Positions 4,759-62,577 of a stretch of DNA of 64,000 nt are shown here, piece by piece. The first letter of the stretch is position 1, and each line of letters begins with the position of its first letter. The stretch is from NCBI GenBank assembly GCA_046537785.1, contig JBKHKD010000002.1:71082-135081 (forward strand), read 5' to 3'. The position numbers were made by a program, and so were the translations under genes. Source of the DNA: Actinomycetota bacterium. Lineage in GTDB: Bacteria; Actinomycetota; Acidimicrobiia; Spongiisociales; ZC4RG35. Below the pieces are notes generated by a model. That model ran no database searches. It worked only from the letters and a program-made list of their open reading frames with translations, and had not been told where the DNA came from.

Positions 4759-7700
4759 GTGTCCTTCTCTCATCTCCATCTCCACACCGAATACTCCCTC
4801 CTCGACGGTGCGGCGCGGATAGCCGACGTGGTGGGGGCGGCGGCTCGAATGGGCCAGCCCGCAATCGGGATCACCGACCACGGAAATCTCTACGGGGTGG
4901 TCGACTTCGTCAAGGCCGCTCGCCAGCATGACATCAAGCCGGTTATCGGCATCGAGGCCTACTTCACCGACGGTTCCCGGTTCGACCGACCCCCGGCCGA
5001 CCAGAACAAGCGGTATCACATGCTGTTGTTCGCCGAGAACGAGGTCGGGTACCGCAACCTCCTCCAGCTCTCCTCGAAGTCCTTTCTCGAGGGCTACTAC
5101 TACAAGCCCCGGATGGACTACGAGGTGTTGGCGGAGCACTCGGAGGGGATCATCGCCACGTCGGGTTGTCTCGGCGGGATCGTCCCCCAGCTTCTCGGAC
5201 CGGACGCGATGTCGGAGGAGGGCAACAAGGGCACCACCCGTGACTTCGACGCCGCGGTCGCCGCCGCGGCCAGGTTCCAGGACATCTTCGGCCGGGACAA
5301 TTTCTTCATCGAGCTCCAGGACCACGGTCTCGAGGCTCAGGACCGCATCATGGGGGATCTCCTGGATGTGGCGAGACGCATCGACGCTCCGCTGCTGGCC
5401 ACCAACGACGCCCACTACACCCGCAAGGAGGAGCATGACGCCCACGATGCTCTCCTCTGCATCCAGACCGGGTCGCTGCGCAACGAGACGGGTCGGCTCC
5501 GTTTCGAGGGCTCGGAGCACTATCTGAAGACCGCCGAGCAGATGCGCAGTCTCTTCCCCGAGGAGAGCTTCCCCGGGGCATGCGACAACACCCTTTGGAT
5601 CGCCGAGCGGGCCAGTGTCGACCTCGAGTTCGGGAACATCCTCCTGCCCAGCTTTCCCGTTCCCGAGGGCGAGACGGAGGTCACCTACCTGCGGAGACTC
5701 GTCGAGGAGGGCACCCGTGAGCGCTACGGGAGCGAGCCGGGCGCCGACGTCTGGGAGCGGGTCGAGCACGAGCTGAAGATCATCGAGGAGATGGGCTTCC
5801 CCGCCTACTTCCTCATCGTCTGGGACCTCATCCGACATGCCCGGGAGAACGGGATCCGGGTCGGGCCGGGTCGGGGCTCCGCCGCCGGTTCCATCGTCTC
5901 CTACGCGTTGCGGATCACCGACATCGACCCGCTCCGATATGGGCTCATCTTCGAGCGCTTCCTCAATCCCGCGCGCATGTCGATGCCCGACATCGACATG
6001 GACTTCGACGAGCGTTACCGCGGCGAGATGATCCGCTACGCCGCCGAGAAGTACGGCCACGACCGGGTGGCCCAGATCATCACCTTCTCTACGATCAAGG
6101 GGAAACAGGCCATCCGTGACTCGGCCCGGGTCCTCGGCCACCCCTACTCGCTGGGCGATCGCGTCGCCAAGGCAATGCCGCCGTCCATTCTCGGGAAGGA
6201 CCCGACCCTCGACCAGGTGCTCGAGGCACCCGACCCGAACTCACCCTCCGACGTCAAGGACTGGTACGCCAACGCCCACGGGCTCCGGGAGATGTACCAG
6301 TCGGATCCGGGGGTTAGAGAGGTGGTCGACGTCGCCCGCGGGTTGGAGGGGCTGCGCCGCCAGGACTCGATCCACGCTGCCGCGGTCGTCATCGCCCCGG
6401 AGCCGTTGACCAACATCGTCCCCGTCCAGCGCAAGGGGGAGGACGCCGAGGTCGTCACCCAGTTCGAGATGCACGGTGTCGAGGATCTGGGGCTGCTCAA
6501 GATGGACTTCCTGGGCCTGCGCAACCTCTCGATCATCGAACGCTGCCTCGAGTTGTTGGAGGAGAGCACCGGCGAGCGCATCGACATCGACAACATCCCC
6601 CTCGACGACCAGAAGACCTTCGAGCTCCTCCAGAGTGGCAACACCATCGGGGTGTTCCAGATGGAGGGGACAGCCATGCGGGCCCTGATCCGTTCACTGG
6701 CACCGGATACCTTCGACGACGTCATCGCCCTGGTGGCTCTCTATCGGCCCGGTCCGATGGGGGCCGACATGCACAACCTCTACGCCGATCGCAAGAACAA
6801 CAGGGCGCCGGTCGAGGAGCTGCACCCGGCCGTCACCGAGAGCCTGAGCGACACCTATCAGATCATGGTGTACCAGGAACAGGTGATGATGGTGGCCCAG
6901 GACCTGGCCGGTTACTCAATGGCCGACGCCGACAACCTGCGCCGGGCCATGGGCAAGAAGATCAAGTCGGTGATGGACGAGGAGGAGGAGAAGTTCGTCG
7001 CAGGGTGTCTTGCCCAGGGCCACACCGAAGAGACCGCCCGGGAGATGTTCCGGCTCATTGGCCACTTTGCCGGTTACGGATTCAACCGCAGCCATGCCGC
7101 CGGTTACGGCCTGGTTGCCTACCAGACGGCATATCTCAAGGCCCACTATCCGGCCGAGTATCTGGCGTCGCTGCTCACCGCCACGAAACGGGACAAGGAC
7201 CGCACCGCCATCTATCTCAACGAGTGCCGGCAGATGGGCATCGAGGTGCTCGTCCCCGACGTCAACGAGTCGGAGTCCGATTTCACAGTGAGAGACCGCC
7301 GCATCAGGTTCGGCCTGTCGGCAGTGCGCAACGTCGGCGAGGGCGTGGTGGAGAAGATCGCCGAGGCCAGGGAGGATGGACCCTTCGAGTCGTTTCTCGA
7401 CTTCGTCGACCGTGTCGACATCTCGGCTCTCAACCGCCGGACCGTGGAGTCGTTGATCAAGGCGGGTGCGTTCGACGCAATGGGACATTCCCGCAAGGGC
7501 CTGACCCTCATGCACGAGATGATCCTCGACACGACGCTCGAGCGTCGCCGCAACGAAGAGATGGGTCAGTACTCGCTGTTCGCCGGGGAGGAGGCCGGTG
7601 GCGAGGAGAAGGACTTCGAGATCCCTACAGAGGAGTGGGCGCAGAAGACGAAGCTGGCCTTCGAGAAGGAGATGCTCGGGCTATATGTCTCCGACCATCC

Positions 7701-21150: not shown

Positions 21151-21309
21151 CTACGCAGGCCGGGCCATCGAGGCGGCCTGTTCTTGCGACATCTCCATGT
21201 CGTGAGTCTCCTTGGCGTGTGTCTGTGCCTGGGCCACCACGTCGTCGGTCGATTCCCCATTGATCACCGCGCCACAGGGGCACTCGATCACCTTTGCACT
21301 GTCCGTCAT
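21151..21309 (-). CDS. DUF1059-like small metal-binding protein
   Basis: 52-aa product MTDSAKVIECPCGAVINGESTDDVVAQAQTHAKETHDMEMSQEQAASMARPA. Strong SD (AGGAGG) 7 nt upstream. Not in the ORF track because it is under 60 aa. Confidence 0.55.
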   Translation of the reverse strand: MTDSAKVIECPCGAVINGESTDDVVAQAQTHAKETHDMEMSQEQAASMARPA

Positions 21310-21380
21310 TCCCGTACCTCCTGTCGATGGGATCTTCCGATACCGTATCCATCGAACGTTGGCGTCTGGTTGGAGGCCGA

Positions 21381-22133
21381 TTGGCGTACCGCATCTATCT
21401 GCTTGGAAGGGTCGGCATCGAGTCCGATACGGCCCTGATCGAAGCCGCCGCCTTCCCCGGTCGCCAGGGGCGGCTCGCCTTCGTCTTCCTCGCCAGCGAG
21501 CAGAGCCGTGTCGACCGTCACCGTCTCGCCGACGTGCTCTGGGATGAGGAGCTCCCCGACCAGTGGATGTCGGCGCTGGCCGCCATCACCTCGAAGCTGC
21601 GCAGGGTGCTGACCGACGCCGGCATGGACGGGGCCACGGTCCTCGACGGGAGAGACGGATCCTACGAGCTGCGGTTTCCGTCGGGCACCTGGATCGATCT
21701 CCAGACGGCGATCAACTCCCTCGACCGGGCCGAGGGGTTGTTGCGTCACGACCGGCCGGCGGAGGCATGGTCGGATGCCACCGTCGCCTCGAGCATCTTC
21801 AGGCGGTCGTTCCTCGCCGGCGAGTCGGGGGAGTGGGTGGAGCGGATGAGACGGGACATCCACGAGTACGAGGTGCGGACCTTCGATGCCCTCGCCCGGG
21901 TCTGGCTGGCTCTCAACCAGCCCGCCTCGGCTCTCCACGCGGCGCGGCGGGTGCTCGATCTCGCCCCGTTCCGGGAGTCGGCCCACACCCGGGTGATGGA
22001 GTGCCATCTGGCCGCCGGGGACCGCGCCGAGGCGGTGAGGGTCTATGACCGTCTGCGACAGATGCTGGAGGAGACGATGGGTCTCTCACCCAACGAGCAA
22101 ACCGAGGAGCTGTACGCCCGGGCCTTGGGGTGA
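21381..22133 (+). CDS. SARP-family (OmpR-like DNA-binding plus BTAD) transcriptional regulator
   Basis: YRIYLLGRVGIE…RLAFVFLA…LADVLW winged helix, then a BTAD/TPR-like tail (RVMECHLAAGDRAEAVRVYDRLRQMLEETMGLSP). Start chosen at a TTG preceded by GGAGG; the track ORF starts at 21294. Confidence 0.7.
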   Translation: MAYRIYLLGRVGIESDTALIEAAAFPGRQGRLAFVFLASEQSRVDRHRLADVLWDEELPDQWMSALAAITSKLRRVLTDAGMDGATVLDGRDGSYELRFPSGTWIDLQTAINSLDRAEGLLRHDRPAEAWSDATVASSIFRRSFLAGESGEWVERMRRDIHEYEVRTFDALARVWLALNQPASALHAARRVLDLAPFRESAHTRVMECHLAAGDRAEAVRVYDRLRQMLEETMGLSPNEQTEELYARALG

Positions 22134-22138
22134 ATCGG

Positions 22139-22222
22139 TGCGGGAGGTGGGACTCGAACCCACATGCCCTTGCGGGCAATGGCTTTTGAGGCCATCGCGT
22201 AAACCAGTTCCGCCACTCCCGC
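22139..22222 (-). tRNA. tRNA-Leu(CAA)
   Basis: Hand-folded cloverleaf: acceptor GCGGGAG/CTCCCGC, anticodon stem ATGGC/GCCAT with loop CTCAAAA (anticodon CAA), long variable arm, T-arm GGTTCGAGTCC. CCA is not encoded. Confidence 0.8.
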
Positions 22223-22242
22223 GGAGCCGTCAATTCTATCCG

Positions 22243-23031
22243 TCACCTTTTTGGACCGACAAAGGTGTCGAGGAAGGCCACGTCCTCGCGACGGGCGACC
22301 GAGATATCGCGTGGGGTGGTTTGTGTCCAATGGACGCCAAGCAAGTCCAGGGCATCGGTGAAGATCCCCAGGATGTCGGTCGAGGCATTGGTGAACATGT
22401 ATCGGATGTACCGGTAGCGTTTGATTCCGGACGAGACCTTTCTCGGTACCTCATTGATGTGTCGGTTCCCATCGGAGTGAATCAGACCTCGGATTAGCGC
22501 CTTGGGGTGAGTGGAGATGATCTCTTGCTGCCATGCGACTAGTTCTATGACGCGTTGGTGCTTCCTACCAGGGGCGTGCTGCGGAAAGACGCAGATCCAA
22601 TGCTTCCAGTAAGCAGAGACCTCGACACAGCCCTCCTTGGCGGTGAACCCCACCTCATCAACCCCACGCACGACGACGATGTGGGTGGCGATCTCATCGA
22701 TGATGTCCGGATACTTCAGATCGCAGGCGATCCGTAGCCGGTAGACCCCTCTTGGATGTGGAGACAAACACCCGTCACCCAGATAGACGCCCAGTAAGTA
22801 TGCGTAAGCCTCCTCGTCGATGAAGCCACCTGTGCATCGGAAGCAATTGTCCACATGCATACGGCGTTTCCCGGTCCACTCCTTCGTTCGGCCACCGCTT
22901 CTCGCTTCCAGGCCGACCCGCCAGTCACGGATCGTCCCGCGCGGGATCTCCAGTCTCCTGCCGATCTCGCAGTCGTTGACCCCCTCCTTGATCAGCTCCA
23001 AGGCCTCCTGATACTCCGATTCCGGTCTCAT
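22243..23031 (-). CDS. Free-standing double-motif LAGLIDADG homing-endonuclease-like protein with N-terminal HTH
   Basis: Motif 1 YLLGVYLGDGCL and motif 2 LIRGLIHSDGN, plus an N-terminal HTH (CEIGRRLEIPRGTIRDW). GC content is visibly lower than in the flanking genes. Confidence 0.65.
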   Translation of the reverse strand: MRPESEYQEALELIKEGVNDCEIGRRLEIPRGTIRDWRVGLEARSGGRTKEWTGKRRMHVDNCFRCTGGFIDEEAYAYLLGVYLGDGCLSPHPRGVYRLRIACDLKYPDIIDEIATHIVVVRGVDEVGFTAKEGCVEVSAYWKHWICVFPQHAPGRKHQRVIELVAWQQEIISTHPKALIRGLIHSDGNRHINEVPRKVSSGIKRYRYIRYMFTNASTDILGIFTDALDLLGVHWTQTTPRDISVARREDVAFLDTFVGPKR

Positions 23032-23092
23032 GGCTCGAACGTATCGGGCGGGTGTGACGGAAATGAGGCGGCGCCGATACCCTTAGCCACCC

Positions 23093-23365
23093 GTGAAACT
23101 CGTCCATCGCAGACTGTTCCGGATCAACGAGAAGATCTCCGACCTGGAGCGGGAAGCCGACCAGGTGGCGGCCGAACTCGACTATCACCGGTCGATCAAC
23201 GACGACGCCCAGGAAGACGCGGTCTACGGCAACTCCATCGATCGGGAGGAAGCCAGCCTGACCGCCGCCGACGTCCGTCGGTTCGAGAAAACCCTCGCCC
23301 GTCTCCAAGAGCAGCGCGCCAGGCTGGTGGCCAAACGGGACCGTCTCTTCGACCGCCTCGACTAA
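23093..23365 (+). CDS. Small coiled-coil hypothetical protein
   Basis: 90-aa charged helical protein with no recognisable motif. Confidence 0.35.
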   Translation: MKLVHRRLFRINEKISDLEREADQVAAELDYHRSINDDAQEDAVYGNSIDREEASLTAADVRRFEKTLARLQEQRARLVAKRDRLFDRLD

Positions 23366-23402
23366 AGAACGGGTGTGACTGCCAGGTAGTACCGTCGGGG
23401 GT

Positions 23403-26015
23403 GTGCCGACACTCGCGCTGATCGACGGCAATTCGATCGCCTATCGGGCGTTCTACGCCCTGCCCGAGGACCTGGCCACCAAGTCGGGCCAGGTCACCAA
23501 CGCCGTGTTCGGGTTCACCCGGATGCTGATCCGTCTGATGAAGGACTTTCATCCCGAAGGCGTGGCAGTTGCCTGGGATGTCTCGAGGAAGACCTTCCGC
23601 ACCGAGTCGTACCCCGAGTACAAGGCGAACCGGGAAAAGGCGCCCGACCACTTCCGCAGCCAGCTTCCGCTCATCGATGAAGTGCTCGAGTCCCTCCACA
23701 TCACCCAGCTCAAGGAGGAGGGCTACGAGGCGGATGACATCATCGCCTCGCTCACCCGTGAGGCGGTGGACGACGGCTGGGACGTTCTCATCGTCACCGG
23801 GGACCGGGACGCGTTCCAGCTCGTGGGAGGGCCGGTGAAGGTGCTCTACACCCGCCGTGGAATCAGCGACACGGTCCTCGCCGACAAAGAGTGGATCACC
23901 GAGAAGTACGGGATCTCGCCTTCCCAATACGTCGACTACGCCGCACTCCGGGGAGACAACTCCGACAACCTGCCCGGAGTCCCGGGAGTGGGGGAGAAGA
24001 CTGCCGCCAGGCTGATCTCCGAGTACGGGACCATCGAGGGGGTTTACACCGCCATCGCCGACCAGACTCCCAAGCTGCGGGAGAATCTCGCCGCCCACCG
24101 CGATCAGGTGTTTCTCAACAAGAAGCTGATGGCCCTGGTCGATGATCTCGACGTCCAATACGGCGCCAGCGACCTCGAGACACGGGAGTGGGATCGCAAA
24201 AGGGTCAAGGACCTTTTCGACAGTCTGGAGTTCCACACGATGTGGAACGACCTGGAGGAGGCGCTCCCGTCGACAGGCGGTGCCACCGAGATCCTGGACG
24301 TCGAATGTGAGTTGGTTACCACCGCCGAACGAATTTCCGAACTGGCCGACCGGGAGGAACTGGTCCTCAGTCTGGTCACCGACGCCGGCGAGAACTACGG
24401 CCTGGCGATCTCCACCGGAGATGACGAGGCGGTGGTCGTCCCGTTCGACAGCGCCGAGCCGATCCTCGTGGCGATCAGCGACGGGAAGGTGGCTGTTTCG
24501 GGCCATGACCTGAAGAGCCTCGCCAGGTCACTCCTCGAGATGGGCCACGACCTCACCACACCGGCAATGGACACCGCCCTTGCCTCGTATGTCGTCAACC
24601 CCAGCCAGCGCGACTACGGGCTCGAGGAGATCGCCGAGCGCCTCCTCGGCTTGGAGCTGGTGTCCCCGGACGACGAGGCAGAGGACGGCACCCTTCCCTT
24701 CGACCATGGGCCCGACGCCGACGTCGAGGGGAGACGGGTCGAGGCCACCCGCCGGCTGGTGGAACGGATGCGGAGCGAGCTGAAGGAACGCGACGAGCTC
24801 GACCTTTTCCTCACCTACGAGCTGCCGCTGGTACCGGTCCTCGCCAGGATGGAGCATGCCGGGATAGGAGTCGACCGGGATTATCTGGAGAAGATGGGCG
24901 CCGAGCTGCGGAGCCAGATCGCCGAGCTGGAGAAGAAGCTCCACGAGCTGGCCGGCGAGCCCTTCAACGTGAACTCCACCGACCAGCTGCGCACCATCCT
25001 CTTCGACGAGCTCGGGCTGCCGGTCATAAAGAAGACCTCCACCGGCAAACCGTCGACCGACGCGTCGGTCCTGAAGAAGCTGGACCACCCACTGGTGAGG
25101 ACCCTCCTCGAATACCGCGAGCTGGAGAAGCTCCGCTCCACCTATGTCGACGGATATCTGCCCCTCATCCACCCCGACGGGCGGATCAGGACCCGCTTCA
25201 ACCAGATGGCCGCCACGACCGGCCGTCTGTCGTCCGACAGCCCCAACCTCCAGAACATCCCGGTGCGTTCCGAGTCGGGTCGCACCATCCGCCGGGCGTT
25301 CATAGCCGGAGAGGGCAACGAGTTTCTCGTAGCCGACTACTCCCAGATCGAGCTGAGAGTGCTGGCCCATATGAGCGGGGACCCGTTCCTCATCGAGGCC
25401 TTCCAGTCGGGGCTCGACATCCACACCGCCACCGCCGCCAGGGTGTTCGGTGTCGGCACCGACGACGTCACCGCCGAGCAGCGTCGCCGGGCGAAGATGA
25501 TCAACTTCGGGCTTCTCTACGGGATGGAGGCCTTCGGGCTCGCCGACCGGCTGGGGATCAGCCGGGATGAGGCCCAGGAGCACATCGACGCCTACTTCGA
25601 CCAGTTCCAGGACGTCAAGGAGTACATGGCGTCGGTGGTGACCAGGGCACGCAACCAGGGCTACACGAAGACTCTCTTCGGGCGGAAGCGTTATCTCCCC
25701 GAGCTGAAGTCGGACAACTTCAGGATCCGCCAGATGGGAGAGAGGATGGCGCTCAACGCCCCGGTGCAGGGAACGGCCGCCGACATCATCAAATCGGCGA
25801 TGATCGAGCTCGACCGCATCCTCCGGGAGGAGAAGCTGGCCACCACTCTTTTGCTCCAGATACACGACGAGCTGATCCTCGAAGTCCCCTACGAGGAGAA
25901 GGAAATCGCCGAGAAACTCGTAGTGGAGACCATGGAGGGGGTCGCCGGCCTCGACGTCCCGCTGGTGGTCGACATCGGCTGGGGACCCGATCTCGCCTCC
26001 ATCGACAAGACATGA
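23403..26015 (+). CDS. polA: DNA polymerase I
   Basis: 870 aa with a 5'-3' exonuclease domain (IDGNSIAYRAFYAL) and polymerase motifs (DYSQIELR, QIHDEL). Confidence 0.95.
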   Translation: MPTLALIDGNSIAYRAFYALPEDLATKSGQVTNAVFGFTRMLIRLMKDFHPEGVAVAWDVSRKTFRTESYPEYKANREKAPDHFRSQLPLIDEVLESLHITQLKEEGYEADDIIASLTREAVDDGWDVLIVTGDRDAFQLVGGPVKVLYTRRGISDTVLADKEWITEKYGISPSQYVDYAALRGDNSDNLPGVPGVGEKTAARLISEYGTIEGVYTAIADQTPKLRENLAAHRDQVFLNKKLMALVDDLDVQYGASDLETREWDRKRVKDLFDSLEFHTMWNDLEEALPSTGGATEILDVECELVTTAERISELADREELVLSLVTDAGENYGLAISTGDDEAVVVPFDSAEPILVAISDGKVAVSGHDLKSLARSLLEMGHDLTTPAMDTALASYVVNPSQRDYGLEEIAERLLGLELVSPDDEAEDGTLPFDHGPDADVEGRRVEATRRLVERMRSELKERDELDLFLTYELPLVPVLARMEHAGIGVDRDYLEKMGAELRSQIAELEKKLHELAGEPFNVNSTDQLRTILFDELGLPVIKKTSTGKPSTDASVLKKLDHPLVRTLLEYRELEKLRSTYVDGYLPLIHPDGRIRTRFNQMAATTGRLSSDSPNLQNIPVRSESGRTIRRAFIAGEGNEFLVADYSQIELRVLAHMSGDPFLIEAFQSGLDIHTATAARVFGVGTDDVTAEQRRRAKMINFGLLYGMEAFGLADRLGISRDEAQEHIDAYFDQFQDVKEYMASVVTRARNQGYTKTLFGRKRYLPELKSDNFRIRQMGERMALNAPVQGTAADIIKSAMIELDRILREEKLATTLLLQIHDELILEVPYEEKEIAEKLVVETMEGVAGLDVPLVVDIGWGPDLASIDKT

Positions 26016-57348: not shown

Positions 57349-58452
57349 ATGACGTCCAATACGCCCGCGGGGCGCGTTCGAGGAGTGTTGGTGCTGGTTG
57401 CTCTGGTTGGGATCCTGTTGCCCCTGATGAGCGTCTTTAACGTACTCGAGCAGACAGGTTGGGACCCTTCGATACTCGTGTCCTTCGGTGAAGATGCCAG
57501 CCCCACGACCGAGTATGGAAAGGAGCGCCTCGGAGACGTCTCCCTCCGGGCGGGCCAAGGCCACGACGGCAAGTTCTTTTTCGTCCAGGCCAACGATCCG
57601 TGGGTGCTTGACCCCCAAGCCAACGCAATGGTCCTTGACCGTCCTCTTTACCGCAGCCAGCGAATGCTCTACCCAGTGCTGGCCGGTGGGGCGGGTTTGT
57701 TCGCGCCTGGGATGATCGTCTGGTCGATGCTGATCTTGAACCTGCTCGCCATGGGAGTGGGCACCTGGGTGGTTAGCCTCATCGCCATGGAGATGGGTGG
57801 CTCGCCTTGGGGTGGCCTCGCCTTCGCCTTGAACATCGGCTTCTTCAGCGAGATCAACATCGGGGGGGCAGGCGTCGTAGCGGCGGTCGCAGCCTTCGGC
57901 GCGGTGCTGATGTTTATGCGTCGTCGGACCGCGGCCGGGGTCGGTCTGCTCGTTGCAGCCGTTCTGGCTCGCGAGGCAATGTTGATTGCCGCTGCCGGAA
58001 TCGCCTTCTGGTTGTGGCTGAGGGGCCGACGCAAGCCGGCGATGATGACCGCCCTAATCCCGGGTCTTTGCGTCATCGCATGGGCCGGGTATTTGCGGCT
58101 CCGGATACGGGACGGTGCCGTCGCCTCTGAGGTGCAGGAGATCGGCTGGCCGTTCGTCGGCTTCGTCGAGGCCTTCGAGAGTTGGGTCGGCGACCCGATC
58201 GATCTGGCCGTCGGAGTCTCCATGATGTTGCTATTCGTCCTGTTCGCCCGTCGTGTTTTCATGAGCGGACACGTCGTGGGATGGGCGTTCCTAGGCTTTG
58301 TGTTTCTGGGTGTGGTATTCACCGAACAGGTTTGGCACTCGTACTTCGACATCACCCGGGCAGTGGCGCCCATCATCACGTCGTTCGTGCTACTGGTGTT
58401 TGTCGGAACCCGACACCACGACAGGCCACTGACTGCTTCAAAAGCCAAATAG
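57349..58452 (+). CDS. Polytopic membrane protein, paralog B
   Basis: Same architecture; loop GHDGKFFFVQANDPWVLDPQANAMVLDRPLYRSQRMLYP. Confidence 0.55.
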   Translation: MTSNTPAGRVRGVLVLVALVGILLPLMSVFNVLEQTGWDPSILVSFGEDASPTTEYGKERLGDVSLRAGQGHDGKFFFVQANDPWVLDPQANAMVLDRPLYRSQRMLYPVLAGGAGLFAPGMIVWSMLILNLLAMGVGTWVVSLIAMEMGGSPWGGLAFALNIGFFSEINIGGAGVVAAVAAFGAVLMFMRRRTAAGVGLLVAAVLAREAMLIAAAGIAFWLWLRGRRKPAMMTALIPGLCVIAWAGYLRLRIRDGAVASEVQEIGWPFVGFVEAFESWVGDPIDLAVGVSMMLLFVLFARRVFMSGHVVGWAFLGFVFLGVVFTEQVWHSYFDITRAVAPIITSFVLLVFVGTRHHDRPLTASKAK

Positions 58453-59625
58453 GGCACAGTCGAGATTAGCTGTTCCTATTCCTGCGCAGTCAGCGATGAA
58501 AATATATGAGAATTGAAGGAATATAGATACGAAGCCAGCGATATATATGAGAGTTCGGTATACCAGATCGGAGTGCGCCGCACGGCACGAGACTAGCCCC
58601 ACCGGGGTAAGAAGTGCAACTGCTTCGATAGCATAGCGATATCCATAGGGAAGCCCTCCCGAACTTCTGTTTAAGGTGACGTGGACGAGCAAATACAGGG
58701 CAGCTGCAAGCGGAGTCCATTTCACCCAATGCTCCTGAGCAGACCAGGCCTTGGGTAACAATAGCAAAGCTATTAGTAGCCATAAAGACCAGATAAGAAC
58801 GCCGTAGCGGGGTGAAAAGAGGGCAGTCCATAGATTCGGCAGGAACTCCGGCGCTCGTTCAGCTGACCCCAACGCTCCAGGTTGCCCACCACCGTACGCT
58901 GCCAAAGGGTTGAACGAGCCCCACAAGATTCGATTGTATGTGACGAGTAATAGGGCTCCGACGAAGGAGGGAATGCCTAATCGGATGAGCGGATGCCACG
59001 ACCGTCGGCTCCAACCGATACCGAGTCCAATGACAGCGACTATTACCGCGATGGGAGGGCGAATGAGGATCCCGATTCCAAATGCGATGCCTGCCCACCA
59101 AAGCCGAAGTTCTGTCAAGGCCCACACCCCCATGGCTACAGCGAGGACTGCTGGTCCATGCGGCCAGATCTGATCAGCCGCTATCGACCATATTGGGGTC
59201 CCCAAGCCCACCAGGACGAGAGTGGGCATGCCAAGCTTGGGATCGATCTTGATCATCGACTTTGCCAGAACCAGGACGGCTATGGCTGATGTAATGACGG
59301 CTAACAGGGTGGCAGGCCAGACAACGAACTCGGTAACTAGGGGCGATACCAGGGCGTACGCCAAGGCAGTCAGCCCAACCAACCCAGGCGCCCGATTGCT
59401 GTAAAGCCCTCCGATCTCAGCTTCGTATACCCACGGTCCTTGCGTGATTGTTTGTGAGAGGTCGAGATCTCCATGCTCCACCAGATGCCATGCAGGGAAG
59501 GCAGTTGCTATGGAATCTGCAGTCTGGGATGCCTGATTCCACGACGCCGATAGAGCGAACAGGAGTGTGAGCAGGAGCCATCCGGCCCACAACGATCGGC
59601 GCATCGAGGGGAGTGTGGCAGTCAT
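58438..59625 (-). CDS. Polytopic membrane protein, GT-C-like (hypothetical)
   Basis: About 10 TM segments. Start chosen at an internal ATG (MTATLPSMRRSLWAGWLLL…) to avoid antisense overlap with uvrA. Confidence 0.5.
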   Translation of the reverse strand: MTATLPSMRRSLWAGWLLLTLLFALSASWNQASQTADSIATAFPAWHLVEHGDLDLSQTITQGPWVYEAEIGGLYSNRAPGLVGLTALAYALVSPLVTEFVVWPATLLAVITSAIAVLVLAKSMIKIDPKLGMPTLVLVGLGTPIWSIAADQIWPHGPAVLAVAMGVWALTELRLWWAGIAFGIGILIRPPIAVIVAVIGLGIGWSRRSWHPLIRLGIPSFVGALLLVTYNRILWGSFNPLAAYGGGQPGALGSAERAPEFLPNLWTALFSPRYGVLIWSLWLLIALLLLPKAWSAQEHWVKWTPLAAALYLLVHVTLNRSSGGLPYGYRYAIEAVALLTPVGLVSCRAAHSDLVYRTLIYIAGFVSIFLQFSYIFIADCAGIGTANLDCALFGF

Positions 59626-59754
59626 CGGAGGGACATAAAAGCGCGTGATCTCTTCCGACGACCGACATATCAGTCGTGCAGTTGTTAGGATCAGAACATG
59701 TGTTCGAAGGTGATGCGCATTACACTTGCGTAACTTCCGACCACCAGGCGAGCT

Positions 59755-62577
59755 TTGTCCACCGAATCGATACTCATCAGGGGCGCCCGTGAGCACAACC
59801 TCAAGGACCTCACGGTCGAGCTGCCCCGTGAGAAGCTGATCCTCTTCACGGGGATCTCCGGATCCGGGAAGTCGTCTCTGGCCTTTGACACCATCTATGC
59901 CGAAGGCCAGCGCCGTTATGTCGAGTCGCTTTCCGCGTACGCCCGGCAGTTCCTCGGGCAGATGGACAAGCCCGACGTCGACTTCATCGACGGGCTATCG
60001 CCAGCGATATCGATCGACCAGAAGACGGCATCACGGAACCCGCGGTCGACGGTGGGCACCGTCACCGAGGTCCACGACTACCTCCGCCTCCTCTACGCCA
60101 GAATCGGCACCGCCCACTGTCCCAACGACGGGACACCGGTGGAAAGACAGACACCCCAGCAGATCGTCGACCGGATCCTTGAGCTGGAGGAGGGGACCAA
60201 GTTCCAGGTGCTTGCACCCGTGGTGCGCGGCCGCAAAGGCGAGTACGAGGGGCTGTTGAAGGAGCTGAGCGAGAAGGGCTTCGCCCGGGCCCGCATCGAC
60301 GGGGAGGTGCGAGACCTCACCGAGGACATTCGCCTCGACCGCTACTACCAGCACACGATCGAGGTCATCGTCGACCGTCTCGTGCGCAAAGACGGGATGG
60401 AGCAGCGGCTCACCCAGTCACTGGAGACGGCGCTGTCGCTCACCGAAGGCGTCGCCGACATCGAGATCGTCGACGGCTCCACGCTCACCTTCTCCCAGCA
60501 CCTGGCCTGCTCGGAGTGCGGGCTGTCCTTCGAGGACCTCCAGCCCCGCAACTTCTCATTCAACAGCCCCTACGGGGCGTGCCCTGAGTGCTCCGGGATC
60601 GGCACCAGGTTCCAGGTCGACGCCGACCTGGTGATCGCCGACCCCGACCTGGCGCTCAGCGAAGGCGCCATCCCCATGTGGTCTTCCAACCGAATGCGCT
60701 ACTACCACCGGCTGCTCAACGGTCTGGCGGGGGCCCTCGGGTTCTCCATGGACACGCCGTGGAAGGACCTGTCTGAGGACATGAGGGAGAAGATCCTCTA
60801 CGGGCTGGGCGAGGAGAAGATCACCGTGGAGTACACCAACAGGTTCGGGAGGAAGCGCCGCTGGGACGCCAACTTCGAAGGAGCCATTCCGTTCCTCAAC
60901 AGGAGGCACGAGTCGGCCGAGACGGACAACGCCCGGGAGTACTACCAGGAGTTCATGGCCGAGGTGCCCTGTGATGCATGTAACGGCGGGCGCCTCAACC
61001 CTATCTCGCTTGCGGTCACCATCGAGGAGCGCAACATCGCCGAGGTCTCCGACCTCAGTCTTGCCGAGGCACACGAGTTCTTCGATCGGTTGGAGCTGTC
61101 GGAGCGTGACGCCCACATCGCCGAGCGGGTGCTGAAAGAGATTCGGTCGCGGATCAAGTTCCTCCTCGACGTAGGTCTCGACTACCTGACTCTGTCCCGC
61201 TCGGCCGCCACGCTCGCCGGGGGCGAGGCGCAGCGGATCCGTCTCGCCACCCAGATCGGGTCCGGCCTCGTGGGTGTCCTCTACATCCTGGACGAGCCCT
61301 CGATCGGCCTCCACCAGCGAGACAACAAACGGCTCATCGAGACCCTGCTCCGTCTCCGCGACCTGGGCAACACGCTCATAGTGGTGGAGCACGACGAGGA
61401 AACGATCAGGGTTGCCGATCACATCGTCGACATCGGCCCGGGCGCAGGAGAGCACGGCGGGCACGTCGTAGTGCAGGGAACACTCGAAGACGTGAAAGAC
61501 AACTCCGACTCGCTCACCGGGGACTATCTGGCGGGGCGTCGTCAGATCGAGACCCCGCTGCTCCGTCGACAGGGAAATGGGAGCTCCATCAACGTTTTCG
61601 GCGCCTCAGAGCACAACCTGCAGGGGATCGACGTCGAGTTCCCTCTCGGCGTCTTCACCGCCGTCACCGGCGTGTCAGGGTCGGGAAAATCGACACTGGT
61701 GGAGGAAATCCTCTGGAAGACCCTCGCGGCCAAGGTGAACCGGGCCAGGGTCGTGCCCGGGCGGCACAAGAAGATCGAGGGCATCGACCTCATCGACAAG
61801 GCCATCGACATCGACCAGTCGCCCATCGGACGGACACCACGTTCCAACCCGGCCACATACACCAAGGTCTTCGATCACATCAGGAGTCTTTTCTCCCAGA
61901 CCCAGGAGGCCCGGGCCCGGGGTTACAAGCCGGGACGGTTCTCCTTCAACGTCTCCGGAGGGCGCTGCGAGGCCTGCAAGGGGGACGGGACCATCAAGAT
62001 CGAGATGCACTTCCTCCCCGACGTCTACGTGCCCTGCGAGGTGTGCGGGGGGAAGCGGTACAACCGGGAGACCCTCGAGATCCTGTGGAAAGGGCACAAC
62101 ATCTCCGACGTTCTCGAAATGTCCGTCGAGGATGCCCTCGAGTTCTTCGAGAACCAGCCCAAGATAATCCGGGTGCTCCAGACCCTCTACGACGTTGGTC
62201 TCGGCTATATCCGGCTCGGCCAGCCGGCGACGACACTGTCCGGTGGCGAAGCGCAGCGGATCAAGCTGGCGTCGGAGCTGGGCAAGCGTTCGACGGGCAA
62301 GACCCTCTACATCCTCGACGAGCCGACCACGGGCCTCCACTTCGAGGACATCAGGAAGTTGTTGCAGGTGCTGCAGCGTCTCGTGGACGCCGGCAACACA
62401 GTCATCGTCATCGAGCACAACCTCGACGTGGTGAAGTCGGTCGACCACATCATCGACCTCGGGCCCGAAGGGGGCAGCGGGGGAGGGCGGATAGTGGCCA
62501 TCGGCAGTCCCGAGGAAGTGGCCTCCGTCACCGAGAGCTACACCGGCAAATTCTTGCGGGAGATGGTGGGTACTTAG
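59755..62577 (+). CDS. uvrA: Excinuclease ABC subunit A
   Basis: 940 aa with two ABC ATPase modules ([25 protein letters not shown]), zinc fingers (CxxC) and YARQF. TTG start. Confidence 0.95.

Follow-up and report, generated by a model that had tools for sequence, protein, structure and literature searches.

In the window (the whole stretch of DNA that was analysed, 64,000 nt), we found that there is a single tRNA gene, a tRNA-Leu(CAA) at 22137..22222, and that a free-standing gene for a predicted HTH and double-LAGLIDADG endonuclease lies next to it on the same strand. The stop codon of the endonuclease gene is at 22245-22243 and the tRNA 5' end is at 22222, which leaves a gap of exactly 20 nt, as the initial annotation had described. 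The features of the locus are as follows.

22137..22222, minus strand: tRNA-Leu(CAA), class II with a long variable arm (ARAGORN; Rfam RF00005, 61 bits)
22262..22233, minus strand: candidate sigma-70-like tRNA promoter, TTGTCG-18 nt-TAGAAT, which overlaps the 3' end of the endonuclease gene (last codons and stop)
22243..23031, minus strand: free-standing gene for the predicted HTH and double-LAGLIDADG endonuclease, 262 aa, ATG start, with the TGA stop inside the end coordinate
22465..22503, minus strand: LAGLIDADG motif 2, KALIRGLIHSDGN, residues 177-189, with the Asp187 codon at 22473-22471
22558..22587, minus strand: family-specific conserved motif FPQHAPGRKH, residues 149-158, between the LAGLIDADG halves
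22771..22809, minus strand: LAGLIDADG motif 1, AYAYLLGVYLGDG, residues 75-87, with the Asp86 codon at 22776-22774
22906..23022, minus strand: N-terminal helix-turn-helix of the AF2 model, residues 4-42
23032..23092: divergent intergenic region of 61 nt between the endonuclease start and the 90-aa ORF
23093-23365, plus strand: conserved 90-aa ORF preceding polA, used as a syntenic anchor
23403-26015, plus strand: polA, used as a syntenic anchor

The further neighbours of the endonuclease gene are BTAD, DUF1059 and histidine kinase genes. When we searched 21500-23900 with Rfam (E<=1), the tRNA was the only RNA family found and there was no intron; the endonuclease ORF runs from its own ATG to its own stop within the interval between the 90-aa ORF and the tRNA. 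A group I intron or intein context is therefore rejected, and the gene is free-standing as first proposed. At a single odd locus among the relatives (L084), an ARAGORN search for an intron was likewise negative. The 262-aa ORF is a real gene because it has more than 2,245 homologs and evolves at dN/dS 0.09-0.25. Its GC content is 57.9% as compared to a window mean of 62.3% (SD 3.1), which ranks it in the bottom ~10% of segments of its size though others are lower still, and its GC3 is 72% as compared to 80-87% in the adjacent genes; the lower GC that had been noticed at the outset is real, though modest.

To describe the protein, we combined an AF2 model (pLDDT 83.4, pTM 0.74) with profile searches and a family alignment. 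The model has an N-terminal HTH of three helices (residues 4-15, 20-27 and 31-42) followed by two alpha-beta-beta-alpha-beta-beta-alpha halves with the LAGLIDADG helices at their interface. The order of secondary structure is H73-85/E/E/H108-122/E/E and then H176-187/E/E/H218-230/E/E, so that the second half opens with helix 176-187. In Foldseek searches, more than 50 LAGLIDADG structures matched at probability 1.00 with TM up to 0.64, and the top matches were all monomeric LAGLIDADG enzymes: I-Tsp061I (E=2.4e-7), I-AniI, I-DmoI, bI3 maturase and the I-OnuI family, all at probability 1.00. The two LAGLIDADG motifs are ~101 aa apart. Motif 1 contains an invariant YLLGxYLGDG in the family alignment and aligns residue for residue with motif 1 of I-AniI. 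The double LAGLIDADG architecture with an N-terminal HTH, proposed from the letters of the sequence, is thus borne out by the predicted fold. The aspartates that end the two motifs, D86 and D187, are invariant in 91/91 aligned relatives, and the count for D86 includes members from viral contigs; the initial annotation had asked whether these acidic residues might be missing, and they are present in both motifs. Between the halves, F149, P150, Q151, H152, G155, K157 and H158 of the FPQHAPGRKH motif are each at least 95% conserved among the 91 sequences, and this motif may help to form the active site or to contact DNA.

Profile searches gave weaker signals. The window protein scores 14.5 bits against the 22.5-bit gathering cutoff of Pfam LAGLIDADG_3, so that the Pfam scan suggested at the outset fell short for this copy; a Streptomyces venezuelae homolog exceeds the cutoff at 25.4 bits, and the family appears from these scores to sit at the margin of the LAGLIDADG_3 model. 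The match to known LAGLIDADG enzymes in PDB profiles is weak (E=0.013), and Pfam HTH_23 reaches E=1.2e-3 on the window protein, under its cutoff, while many homologs carry a precomputed PF13384 annotation. We base the LAGLIDADG assignment on the predicted fold and on the one homolog that passes the Pfam cutoff. No Pfam or NCBIfam model reached threshold on the window protein and there was no NCBIfam match at all, WhiA models included, so membership of WhiA or of another curated family is rejected; an anti-phage defence system is rejected as well, with no PADLOC family at E<=0.01. By its modelled fold and its motif-end acidic residues, the window protein is of the monomeric two-motif LAGLIDADG type. 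We propose that the N-terminal HTH is an additional DNA-binding module of the predicted endonuclease.

We then asked how widely this protein occurs and where its genes lie. The family comprises 3,592 clusters at 50% identity, whose members are labelled in databases as 'HTH protein', 'transcriptional regulator' or 'hypothetical', and at least 120 intact relatives are 66-86% identical to the window protein. In 88 of the 90 loci of relatives, a tRNA-Leu gene lies at most 300 nt away, and it is the sole neighbour in common across Acidimicrobiia, Streptomyces, other actinomycetes and phage-like contigs. The tRNA is usually tRNA-Leu(CAA) and more rarely UAA or CAG; on the same strand it lies upstream in 67 of these 88 loci and downstream in 12, 8 loci have it on the opposite strand and 1 has it within the ORF. 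The other neighbours vary by lineage (polA in Acidimicrobiia, pdtaR/pyk in Streptomyces). Judged from these loci, this large uncharacterised family has its niche directly beside a tRNA-Leu gene, a linkage seen across phyla and on phage-like contigs. The family tree agrees with taxonomy at large scale and the pdtaR/polA neighbourhood appears to be ancestral, as though the gene had resided there for a very long time. Among the carriers, only IMG/VR contigs (putatively viral) look mobile; they are phage-like, bear tRNA arrays and also have the endonuclease homolog adjoining tRNA-Leu(UAA/CAA); a weak 'endonuclease' match in PHROGs was obtained for these viral-contig homologs only. A tblastn search of 50,697 phage genomes gave no match and neither did one of 72,556 plasmids; therefore, no vehicle is evident. 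A search of the literature found nothing on this family or on a homing endonuclease at an actinobacterial tRNA-Leu.

To determine whether the gene is a stable part of the locus, we sampled the window's clade through polA (74-85% identical), independently of the endonuclease gene itself. Among these relatives, one has an intact copy (L098), one has an internal deletion with both ends retained (L103), four keep just the last ~10-23 codons with differing end points (L100, L101, L102 and L104) and three are without any trace (L105, L107 and L108). Relatives without the gene keep the sequence from ~23076 onward and have lost 22279-22929 or more, and the right-hand edge of the variable segment is the intergenic region 23032..23092. 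Two genome-derived Acidimicrobiia copies (L006 and L008) are frameshifted. The tRNA persists where the endonuclease gene is lost or decayed. Thus, a comparison of the tRNA-Leu flank in related genomes, as had been recommended, finds the gene present, deleted or reduced to a remnant at the same site, and it is not fixed in synteny. We saw no gain of the gene among the polA-anchored relatives. With respect to relatives, the endonuclease is 71, ~70, 56 and 53% identical, which roughly tracks polA (81, 75, 58 and 63%), and all informative differences in this clade can be explained by vertical descent and loss. There was no systematic difference between the tRNAs of carriers and those of non-carriers or deletion derivatives in the clade, so an 'immune' tRNA allele in carriers is rejected.

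The window copy itself is intact and not a remnant. Against L098 it has dN/dS 0.09, at saturated dS.

The positions of the deletions also bear on how the tRNA is expressed. No promoter-like site other than the candidate at 22262..22233 occurs in 21900-23500 (shuffles have a mean of 0.3). The candidate ends 10 nt short of the tRNA and is kept in L098 and in every deletion derivative with a 3' remnant (L100-L104). We infer that it drives the tRNA. The suggestion that the tRNA is co-transcribed from the endonuclease gene loses weight, since the candidate promoter is kept in all remnant-bearing deletions; read-through is possible. In the arrangement of the window, a tRNA promoter within the last codons of the endonuclease gene would halt deletions before the promoter and leave 3' remnants, and a host promoter lodged in a selfish gene would in this way constrain how the gene can be lost.

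In Streptomyces, we sampled eight groups anchored on PdtaR, again independently of the endonuclease gene, and found that the gene is present in 3/8 and absent in 5/8. Upstream of the gene, Streptomyces has a conserved palindrome, GTTCAC...GTGAAC. One pair (L052 and L188) has Pyk and PdtaR 97-98% identical and differs by a clean 892 bp. The variable segment is just the ~0.8-0.9 kb gene. An integrase-based island at the tRNA is rejected on account of this small size and because no integrase was found; a second copy of the tRNA 3' part, searched for with up to 3 mismatches, was likewise not found in the 64-kb window. In a comparison of 888 Streptomyces-level pairs, the identity of the endonuclease shows no correlation with that of Pyk (rho 0.01), as compared to a rho of 0.45 for PdtaR with Pyk. 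In the pair L017/L067, for example, Pyk is 97% identical and the endonuclease 53%. Nucleotide identity is 91-99% in the flanks and drops to 42-65% over the tRNA, the spacer and two-thirds of the gene at its 5' end, and nowhere else. The dS of the endonuclease gene is 2.4-5x that of the adjacent pyk in 4/5 close genome pairs and about equal in the fifth, while its dN/dS of 0.09-0.25 indicates purifying selection and, as read from substitution rates, a functional protein. We did not rely on a Kribbella pair (L024/L033) in which amino-acid identity is 48% at 64-84% nucleotide identity, as the ORF extraction is possibly off. By these comparisons, the tRNA-endonuclease segment of Streptomyces is a divergence island decoupled from its flanks. 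The similarity of tRNA alleles is weakly correlated with that of endonuclease alleles (rho 0.11); strict co-evolution, with the two moving as one fixed pair, is rejected. The island is mosaic and takes in the tRNA, which would be compatible with co-conversion of the flanking tRNA.

Together, the loci bear the signature expected of a mobile gene, with presence and absence at a fixed site, decay and loss, and a history unlike that of the flanks. Our preferred reading, to which we give a probability of roughly 0.6, is that the gene is a free-standing homing endonuclease resident beside the tRNA-Leu gene region and probably targeting that region. The window gene, which is intact, would then encode a probably active LAGLIDADG homing endonuclease. 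In chromosomes without the gene, or with a different allele, such an enzyme would recognise a long site within the tRNA-Leu gene or next to it and would make a double-strand break there; if carrier DNA is present after conjugation, transformation or transduction, repair would copy the gene and a variable flank including the tRNA. Without such spread, the endonuclease gene would decay and be deleted.

The initial annotation had offered a domesticated endonuclease or regulator as well as the remnant of a mobile element. As for the latter, a mobile gene fits the data better than a fixed one, and the word remnant does not apply to an intact copy under purifying selection. The former would be a WhiA-like LAGLIDADG/HTH DNA-binding factor at tRNA-Leu(CAA) that tunes its transcription or another host process and is inherited vertically while being dispensable in some lineages. 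We consider this unlikely. Known domesticated relatives have lost their catalytic acidic residues, as in bI3 maturase and in WhiA, which has a C-terminal HTH and is near-universal in its lineages; in contrast, both Asp are invariant (91/91) in the window's family. An N-terminal HTH would suit a regulator, as would strong purifying selection, broad congruence with taxonomy in an old pdtaR/polA neighbourhood, and tRNA adjacency maintained through several rearrangements, and the same can be said of the lack of any phage or plasmid carriage in our searches. However, most of the closest relatives in the unbiased samples lack the gene or hold a decayed copy and yet retain the tRNA, Streptomyces has deep allelic lineages uncoupled from the flanks, and homologs on phage-like contigs occupy the same position. 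A regulatory role for the protein would also fit the overlap of the tRNA promoter candidate with the gene end and the accumulation of S. coelicolor tRNALeu(CAA) in the manner of the developmentally regulated bldA tRNA (PMC6614811). We favour a mobile gene over a fixed regulator because relatives carry the gene, have lost it or hold swapped versions of it, and because its Asp residues are invariant and it is not fixed in synteny.

It is quite unlikely, and more so than domestication, that the window gene is a stranded former homing endonuclease, intact and vertically carried, that no longer spreads and is heading for loss. Losses alone were seen in the window's clade, the two frameshifted Acidimicrobiia copies would belong to the same process, and no vehicle is evident. 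This is hard to reconcile with dN/dS 0.09 against L098 (again with saturated dS), with the at least 120 intact relatives at 66-86% identity, which point to continued selection on the protein, and with exchange in Streptomyces independent of the flanks. An RNA-directed role, with the tRNA-Leu(CAA) transcript as the target of a LAGLIDADG protein that resembles maturases or binds tRNA, is very improbable: the tight linkage to one tRNA species and the fold match to the I-AniI and bI3 maturases would agree with it, but neither an intron nor another structured RNA lies in the locus, deletion of the endonuclease gene leaves a tRNA that presumably still functions, and the weak allele covariation (rho 0.11) speaks against a specific protein-RNA partnership.

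The window protein shares its predicted fold and the acidic residue ending each LAGLIDADG helix with I-Tsp061I, I-AniI, I-DmoI and the I-OnuI family. The genes of those enzymes lie within introns (group I or archaeal) or inteins, for the most part in archaea and organelles, whereas the window gene is free-standing, belongs to bacterial chromosomes and encodes an N-terminal HTH and a family motif (FPQHGPGRKH). To our knowledge, free-standing LAGLIDADG homing endonucleases in bacterial chromosomes have rarely been described. T4 SegB is a free-standing homing endonuclease of the GIY-YIG type in a tRNA gene cluster; its site includes a conserved tRNA T-arm motif and its homing co-converts neighbouring tRNA genes (PMC2330249). 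The window gene resembles SegB in being free-standing beside a tRNA, and co-conversion like that of SegB would fit the mosaic tRNA/endonuclease island. The likeness is one of function and not of membership, as the folds differ (LAGLIDADG as compared to GIY-YIG), and SegB acts between phages in co-infection, whereas the window family is mainly chromosomal in Actinomycetota, with a putative target and putative homing. WhiA (DUF199), which regulates sporulation in Gram-positive bacteria, is described as a domesticated LAGLIDADG and HTH protein (Knizewski & Ginalski 2007, Kaiser et al. 2009, as cited in PMC4255298 and PMC3878966). Like WhiA, the window protein is a bacterial chromosomal protein that unites a LAGLIDADG scaffold and an HTH; unlike WhiA, it has its HTH at the N-terminus, keeps both Asp invariant and is patchily distributed among close relatives. 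The near-obligate linkage to one essential tRNA would provide a well-delimited system in which homing from one bacterial chromosome to another can be tested, and the family is a candidate source of new long-site nucleases.

[quoted passage not shown] 2019, PMC6614811). The window's own tRNA is an ordinary class II tRNA. We hypothesize that the endonuclease is linked to the type I/II tRNA-Leu polymorphism. A tentative and rather doubtful extension is that recurrent cycles of cutting and repair at the tRNA-Leu(CAA) locus drive the unusual evolution of this essential tRNA. If so, it would explain the hypervariability of tRNA-Leu(CAA) within Streptomyces, the alternation of class I and class II tRNA-Leu(CAA) among related actinomycetes and why this locus is a recombination island; it would answer the question of patchy type I tRNALeu left open by Fan et al. 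2019, and a selfish nuclease would have reshaped a core translation component across a phylum. Travel of a type I tRNA-Leu with the endonuclease on the phage-like contigs is rejected, since other tRNA-Leu isoacceptors there are also short. In Streptomyces, the mean pairwise identity of tRNA-Leu(CAA) is 0.80 beside carriers as compared to 95-100% in 4/5 non-carrier groups. At three Solirubrobacterales loci used as a control, the score of tRNA-Leu(CAA) is 0.72-0.77 and that of other tRNAs 0.73-0.95, and these ranges overlap.

We found that the endonuclease gene, first recognized from two LAGLIDADG motifs and an adjoining tRNA-Leu(CAA), is confirmed at 22243-23031, with both motifs and the tRNA at the following positions:

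23031 to 22243, minus strand: endonuclease ORF, ATG start, TGA stop, 262 aa
22222-22137, minus strand: tRNA-Leu(CAA), class II (long variable arm), Rfam tRNA 61 bits
Residues 75-87 of the endonuclease: LAGLIDADG motif 1, AYAYLLGVYLGDG
Residues 177-189 of the endonuclease: LAGLIDADG motif 2, KALIRGLIHSDGN

The gap from the TGA stop to the tRNA 5' end is exactly 20 nt, on the same strand. The gene had also been described as lying in a region of lower GC, which holds for the ORF (57.9% as compared to a window mean of 62.3%), but the difference is modest (about the 10th percentile); GC3 is 72% in the endonuclease gene and 80-87% in neighboring genes. The lowest-GC stretch of the window (53-55%) is 58050-58550, the junction of two convergent ORFs, 57349-58452 (+) and 58438-59796 (-), both of which resemble polytopic membrane proteins. 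A convergent BTAD/TPR regulator gene at 21294-22133 (+), also kept in the relative's locus L104, stops 3 nt short of the tRNA 3' end, and a 52-aa DUF1059 ORF (21151-21309, -) is found just upstream of it. The exact 12-nt direct repeat GCCTTGGGGTGA, present at 22122-22133 (next to the tRNA 3' end, at the BTAD stop) and 22499-22510 (the interior of the endonuclease gene), is probably due to chance. Directly upstream of polA, there is a 90-aa ORF (23093-23365, +) that has no Pfam match and is conserved in all close relatives (41-72% identity), whether the endonuclease is present or not.

Despite weak matches to curated profiles, the LAGLIDADG fold is clear in the predicted structure. The Pfam scan proposed in the initial annotation was divided: the window protein matches HTH_23 (E=1.2e-3) and LAGLIDADG_3 (E=0.042) below the cutoff in both cases, whereas the Streptomyces venezuelae homolog is above the LAGLIDADG_3 cutoff. 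An NCBIfam search with the window protein gave no match, and a PDB sequence search detected I-AniI at E=0.75 with the single sequence and E=0.013 with the family profile. In an AlphaFold2 model built from 29 homologs (pLDDT 83.4, pTM 0.74), the protein is predicted to consist of an N-terminal domain of three helices, a linker with little order and two alpha-beta-beta-alpha-beta-beta-alpha halves. When this model was compared to the PDB with Foldseek, only monomeric LAGLIDADG enzymes and maturases were matched, at probability 1.00; the best match was I-Tsp061I (E=2.4e-7), followed by I-AniI, I-DmoI, bI3 and the I-OnuI family.

The window gene is intact and belongs to a large, uncurated family of free-standing LAGLIDADG endonuclease genes that are fused to an HTH and associated with tRNA-Leu. 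We found more than 2,245 homologs of the window protein. The top 120 share 66-86% identity with it; most of these derive from MAGs of Acidimicrobiia, and their database names are 'helix-turn-helix domain-containing protein', 'transcriptional regulator' or 'hypothetical'. Searching 1.84 billion cluster representatives with a profile recovered 3,592 clusters at E<=1e-3, of which 713 reach E<=1e-30, and the HTH is absent from some clusters of the family. Scanning one genome per species gave at least 585 loci; those listed come from Acidimicrobiia, Streptomyces (including S. venezuelae ATCC 10712), Kitasatospora, Kribbella, Actinomadura, Nonomuraea, Solirubrobacterales, Thermoleophilia and one Dormibacterota MAG. 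In 91 aligned members, including homologs on putatively viral contigs, the acidic residues at the ends of both motifs (Asp86 and Asp187) are invariant, and a family-specific FPQHGPGRKH segment between the LAGLIDADG halves is conserved. Literature searches found no published description of the family or of its linkage to tRNA-Leu.

To that linkage there are few exceptions. A tRNA-Leu directly adjoins the endonuclease gene in 79 of 80 genome loci (CAA in 76, CAG in 3) and lies within 300 nt in 88 of 90 loci when 10 real IMG/VR relatives are included, in these arrangements:

tRNA-Leu upstream, same strand, median gap 106 nt: 67 loci
tRNA-Leu(CAA) downstream, same strand, as in the window: 12 loci
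tRNA-Leu on the opposite strand: 8 loci
tRNA-Leu inside the endonuclease ORF: 1 locus

The downstream same-strand gap has a median of 21 nt over 13 loci, a set that includes L085, a putatively viral contig on which the family member is beside tRNA-Ala(UGC). The linkage is not due to chance, because random placement within 300 nt of one given tRNA in a multi-megabase genome is expected in about 1 in 10,000 cases. Other neighbors vary: the 90-aa ORF and polA are found only in close Acidimicrobiia, and in Streptomyces the genes run livG-livF-pdtaR / tRNA / endonuclease / pyk. Homologs on IMG/VR contigs with tRNA arrays and tmRNA lie 4 nt after tRNA-Leu(UAA) (L082) and 5 nt before tRNA-Leu(CAA) (L087). 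The tRNA-Ala neighbor of L085 and the tRNA-Leu(CAG) neighbors (not CAA or UAA) of L029, L041 and L073 are possible target switches. In L190 (ENA ERZ25039530 contig_49324), ARAGORN detected no tRNA-Leu in the interval from the endonuclease gene to pdtaR; in L191, which has identical PdtaR and Pyk and a 97% identical endonuclease, the tRNA-Leu is present. In L084 (IMG/VR UViG_3300035698_014118), the endonuclease ORF (5933-6763) contains a complete, in-frame, 74-nt class I (short variable loop) tRNA-Leu(CAA) at 6127-6200 (Rfam 51 bits), exactly at the HTH/core linker, and the ORF flanks resemble fragments of another tRNA (5' part, GCCGGTGTGGCGGAATTGGCATAC; 3' part, GAGGGTTCGATTCCCTCCACCGGTA); this arrangement may be a frozen insertion or conversion intermediate.

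To compare the tRNA-Leu flank in related genomes, as had been proposed, we sampled loci independently of the endonuclease gene through PolA and PdtaR anchors, and found the gene present, decayed or absent. The N-terminal 320 aa of the window PolA recovered 80 metagenome loci, 11 of them with polA 74-85% identical, and the 9 that extend far enough upstream to be informative share the order tRNA-Leu(CAA)(-) / 90-aa ORF(+) / polA(+). The gene is intact in L098 (71% identity to the window's); an internal deletion of ~650 bp in L103 leaves ~34 codons at the start and ~12 at the end; L100, L101, L102 and L104 retain just the final ~10-23 codons, with different end points (window equivalents 22311, 22288, 22271 and 22278); and L105, L107 and L108 have no recognizable endonuclease sequence. 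Two genome-derived Acidimicrobiia copies (L006, L008) are frameshifted. Among eight protein groups of syntenic Streptomyces loci found through PdtaR orthologs, three carry the gene (the P0390 group, S. formicae and S. hygroscopicus) and five do not (S. clavuligerus, S. olivaceus, S. qinzhouensis, the P0358 group and a DRR221920 assembly with a PdtaR named for S. vietnamensis). L188 and S. venezuelae L052, with Pyk and PdtaR 97-98% identical, differ cleanly by 892 bp, a segment beginning 19 nt past the tRNA 3' end. Thus, the endonuclease gene is dispensable and has been repeatedly lost.

All 3' remnants end beyond a sigma-70-like site on the tRNA strand, TTGTCG-18-TAGAAT (22262..22233), the sole such site in 21900-23500. 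It spans the FVGPKR codons and the stop of the endonuclease gene, 10 nt before the tRNA, and is conserved in L098 and every derivative with a 3' remnant. We infer that the tRNA is transcribed from a promoter of its own within the end of the gene, which would explain the 3' stubs left by deletions. The initial annotation had suggested co-transcription of the tRNA with the endonuclease gene; given this candidate promoter, such dependence need not be obligatory.

In 888 Streptomyces locus pairs with Pyk >=84% identical, endonuclease identity averages 0.64 (minimum 0.48) and shows no correlation with that of Pyk (Spearman 0.01), as compared to 0.45 for PdtaR against Pyk. Between L017 and L067, the flanks are 91-99% identical in nucleotide sequence as compared to 42-65% across the tRNA/endonuclease segment, which begins slightly upstream of the tRNA and extends about two-thirds into the endonuclease gene before identity recovers. 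Endonuclease synonymous divergence is 2.4-5x that of adjacent pyk in four of five close pairs and about equal in the fifth (L040/L062), while dN/dS is 0.11-0.18 in all five; for the window lineage, comparison to L098 gives 0.09 and to L001 0.25. Low dN/dS together with excess synonymous divergence indicates that the protein is under selection and that its alleles either predate the surrounding chromosome or have been exchanged independently of it. The tRNA beside carriers is unusually diverse (mean pairwise identity 0.80, minimum 0.56) and one allele, 95-100% identical, is common to four of five non-carrier groups, in a small sample comparing the tRNA-Leu neighbor alone. In a control on three Solirubrobacterales loci, the scores of tRNA-Leu(CAA) (0.72-0.77) and of other tRNAs (0.73-0.95) overlap. 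Alleles of tRNA and endonuclease covary weakly (rho 0.11), which implies breakpoints between them.

Taken together, these data suggest, with a probability of roughly 0.6, a free-standing homing endonuclease whose target would lie within or next to the tRNA-Leu gene. This reading is based on the intact catalytic-type LAGLIDADG scaffold, the strict site preference across phyla and phage-like contigs with Leu isoacceptor switches, the presence, decay and absence at one site, the divergence island centered on the tRNA/endonuclease junction and the purifying selection on the protein. T4 SegB, whose site contains a tRNA T-arm motif and whose homing carries neighboring genes of the phage tRNA cluster along (PMC2330249), may be the closest functional precedent, in working and not in family (GIY-YIG as compared to LAGLIDADG). 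We found no relative in 50,697 sequenced phage genomes or 72,556 plasmids.

A domesticated DNA-binding or regulatory protein would fit the HTH domain and the long residence near pdtaR/polA; it is unlikely, and repeated loss is not the behavior of a fixed lineage-wide regulator. The initial annotation had reasoned that a vertically inherited regulator would lack the catalytic residues in both motifs and be conserved in synteny; instead, both Asp residues are kept and the gene is polymorphic among syntenic relatives. Because these residues are kept, the HTH is N-terminal and the distribution is patchy, in contrast to WhiA-type domesticated proteins, we ruled out a protein of that type. Within the window's clade, where endonuclease identity to relatives roughly follows polA identity, the sequences require only vertical descent and loss. 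A stranded but still intact relic is less probable again than a host role, and an RNA-directed role is very improbable. We also ruled out an intron- or intein-encoded gene (Rfam detected the tRNA alone in 21500-23900, and an ARAGORN intron search on L084 was negative). Neither an integrase island at the tRNA-Leu locus (the window has no second copy of the tRNA 3' part at up to 3 mismatches) nor a listed defense gene (PADLOC, E<=0.01) was found.

In S. coelicolor, tRNALeu(CAA) is of type I, could not be deleted and is the sole Leu isoacceptor of that type, and some Streptomyces lack it, for which no explanation was offered (Fan et al., PMC6614811). Of 81 tRNA-Leu(CAA) loci beside the endonuclease, 53 are class I and 28 class II. 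That nuclease-driven conversion caused this polymorphism is an attractive idea, if a rather doubtful one. In carriers as well as non-carriers, Streptomyces class I tRNAs have a short T-arm-like hairpin on either side (for example, L052 5780-5795, ccttcgtttcgaagg, upstream, and 5871-5890, ccTTCGATTCCaagg, downstream), and the endonuclease insertion begins right behind the downstream hairpin. The spacer preceding the endonuclease gene (5' UTR ~5890-5960 in L052) contains a GTTCAC-N(6-8)-GTGAAC palindrome in many Streptomyces alleles; in class II alleles, this palindrome is part of a terminator-like hairpin. The hairpins and palindrome may serve as an operator or processing signal, or belong to the target. 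The class I form (74-78 nt, 5-nt variable loop, ~100-200 nt upstream of position 6001) is found at L009, L010, L024, L033, L035, L055, L063, L080 and most Streptomyces loci, and beyond Streptomyces in Kribbella, Nonomuraea, Nocardiopsis, Yinghuangia, Embleya and some Actinomadura; the related taxa Kitasatospora, other Actinomadura, Streptosporangium, Planotetraspora, S. alboflavus and S. formicae have class II at the same locus.
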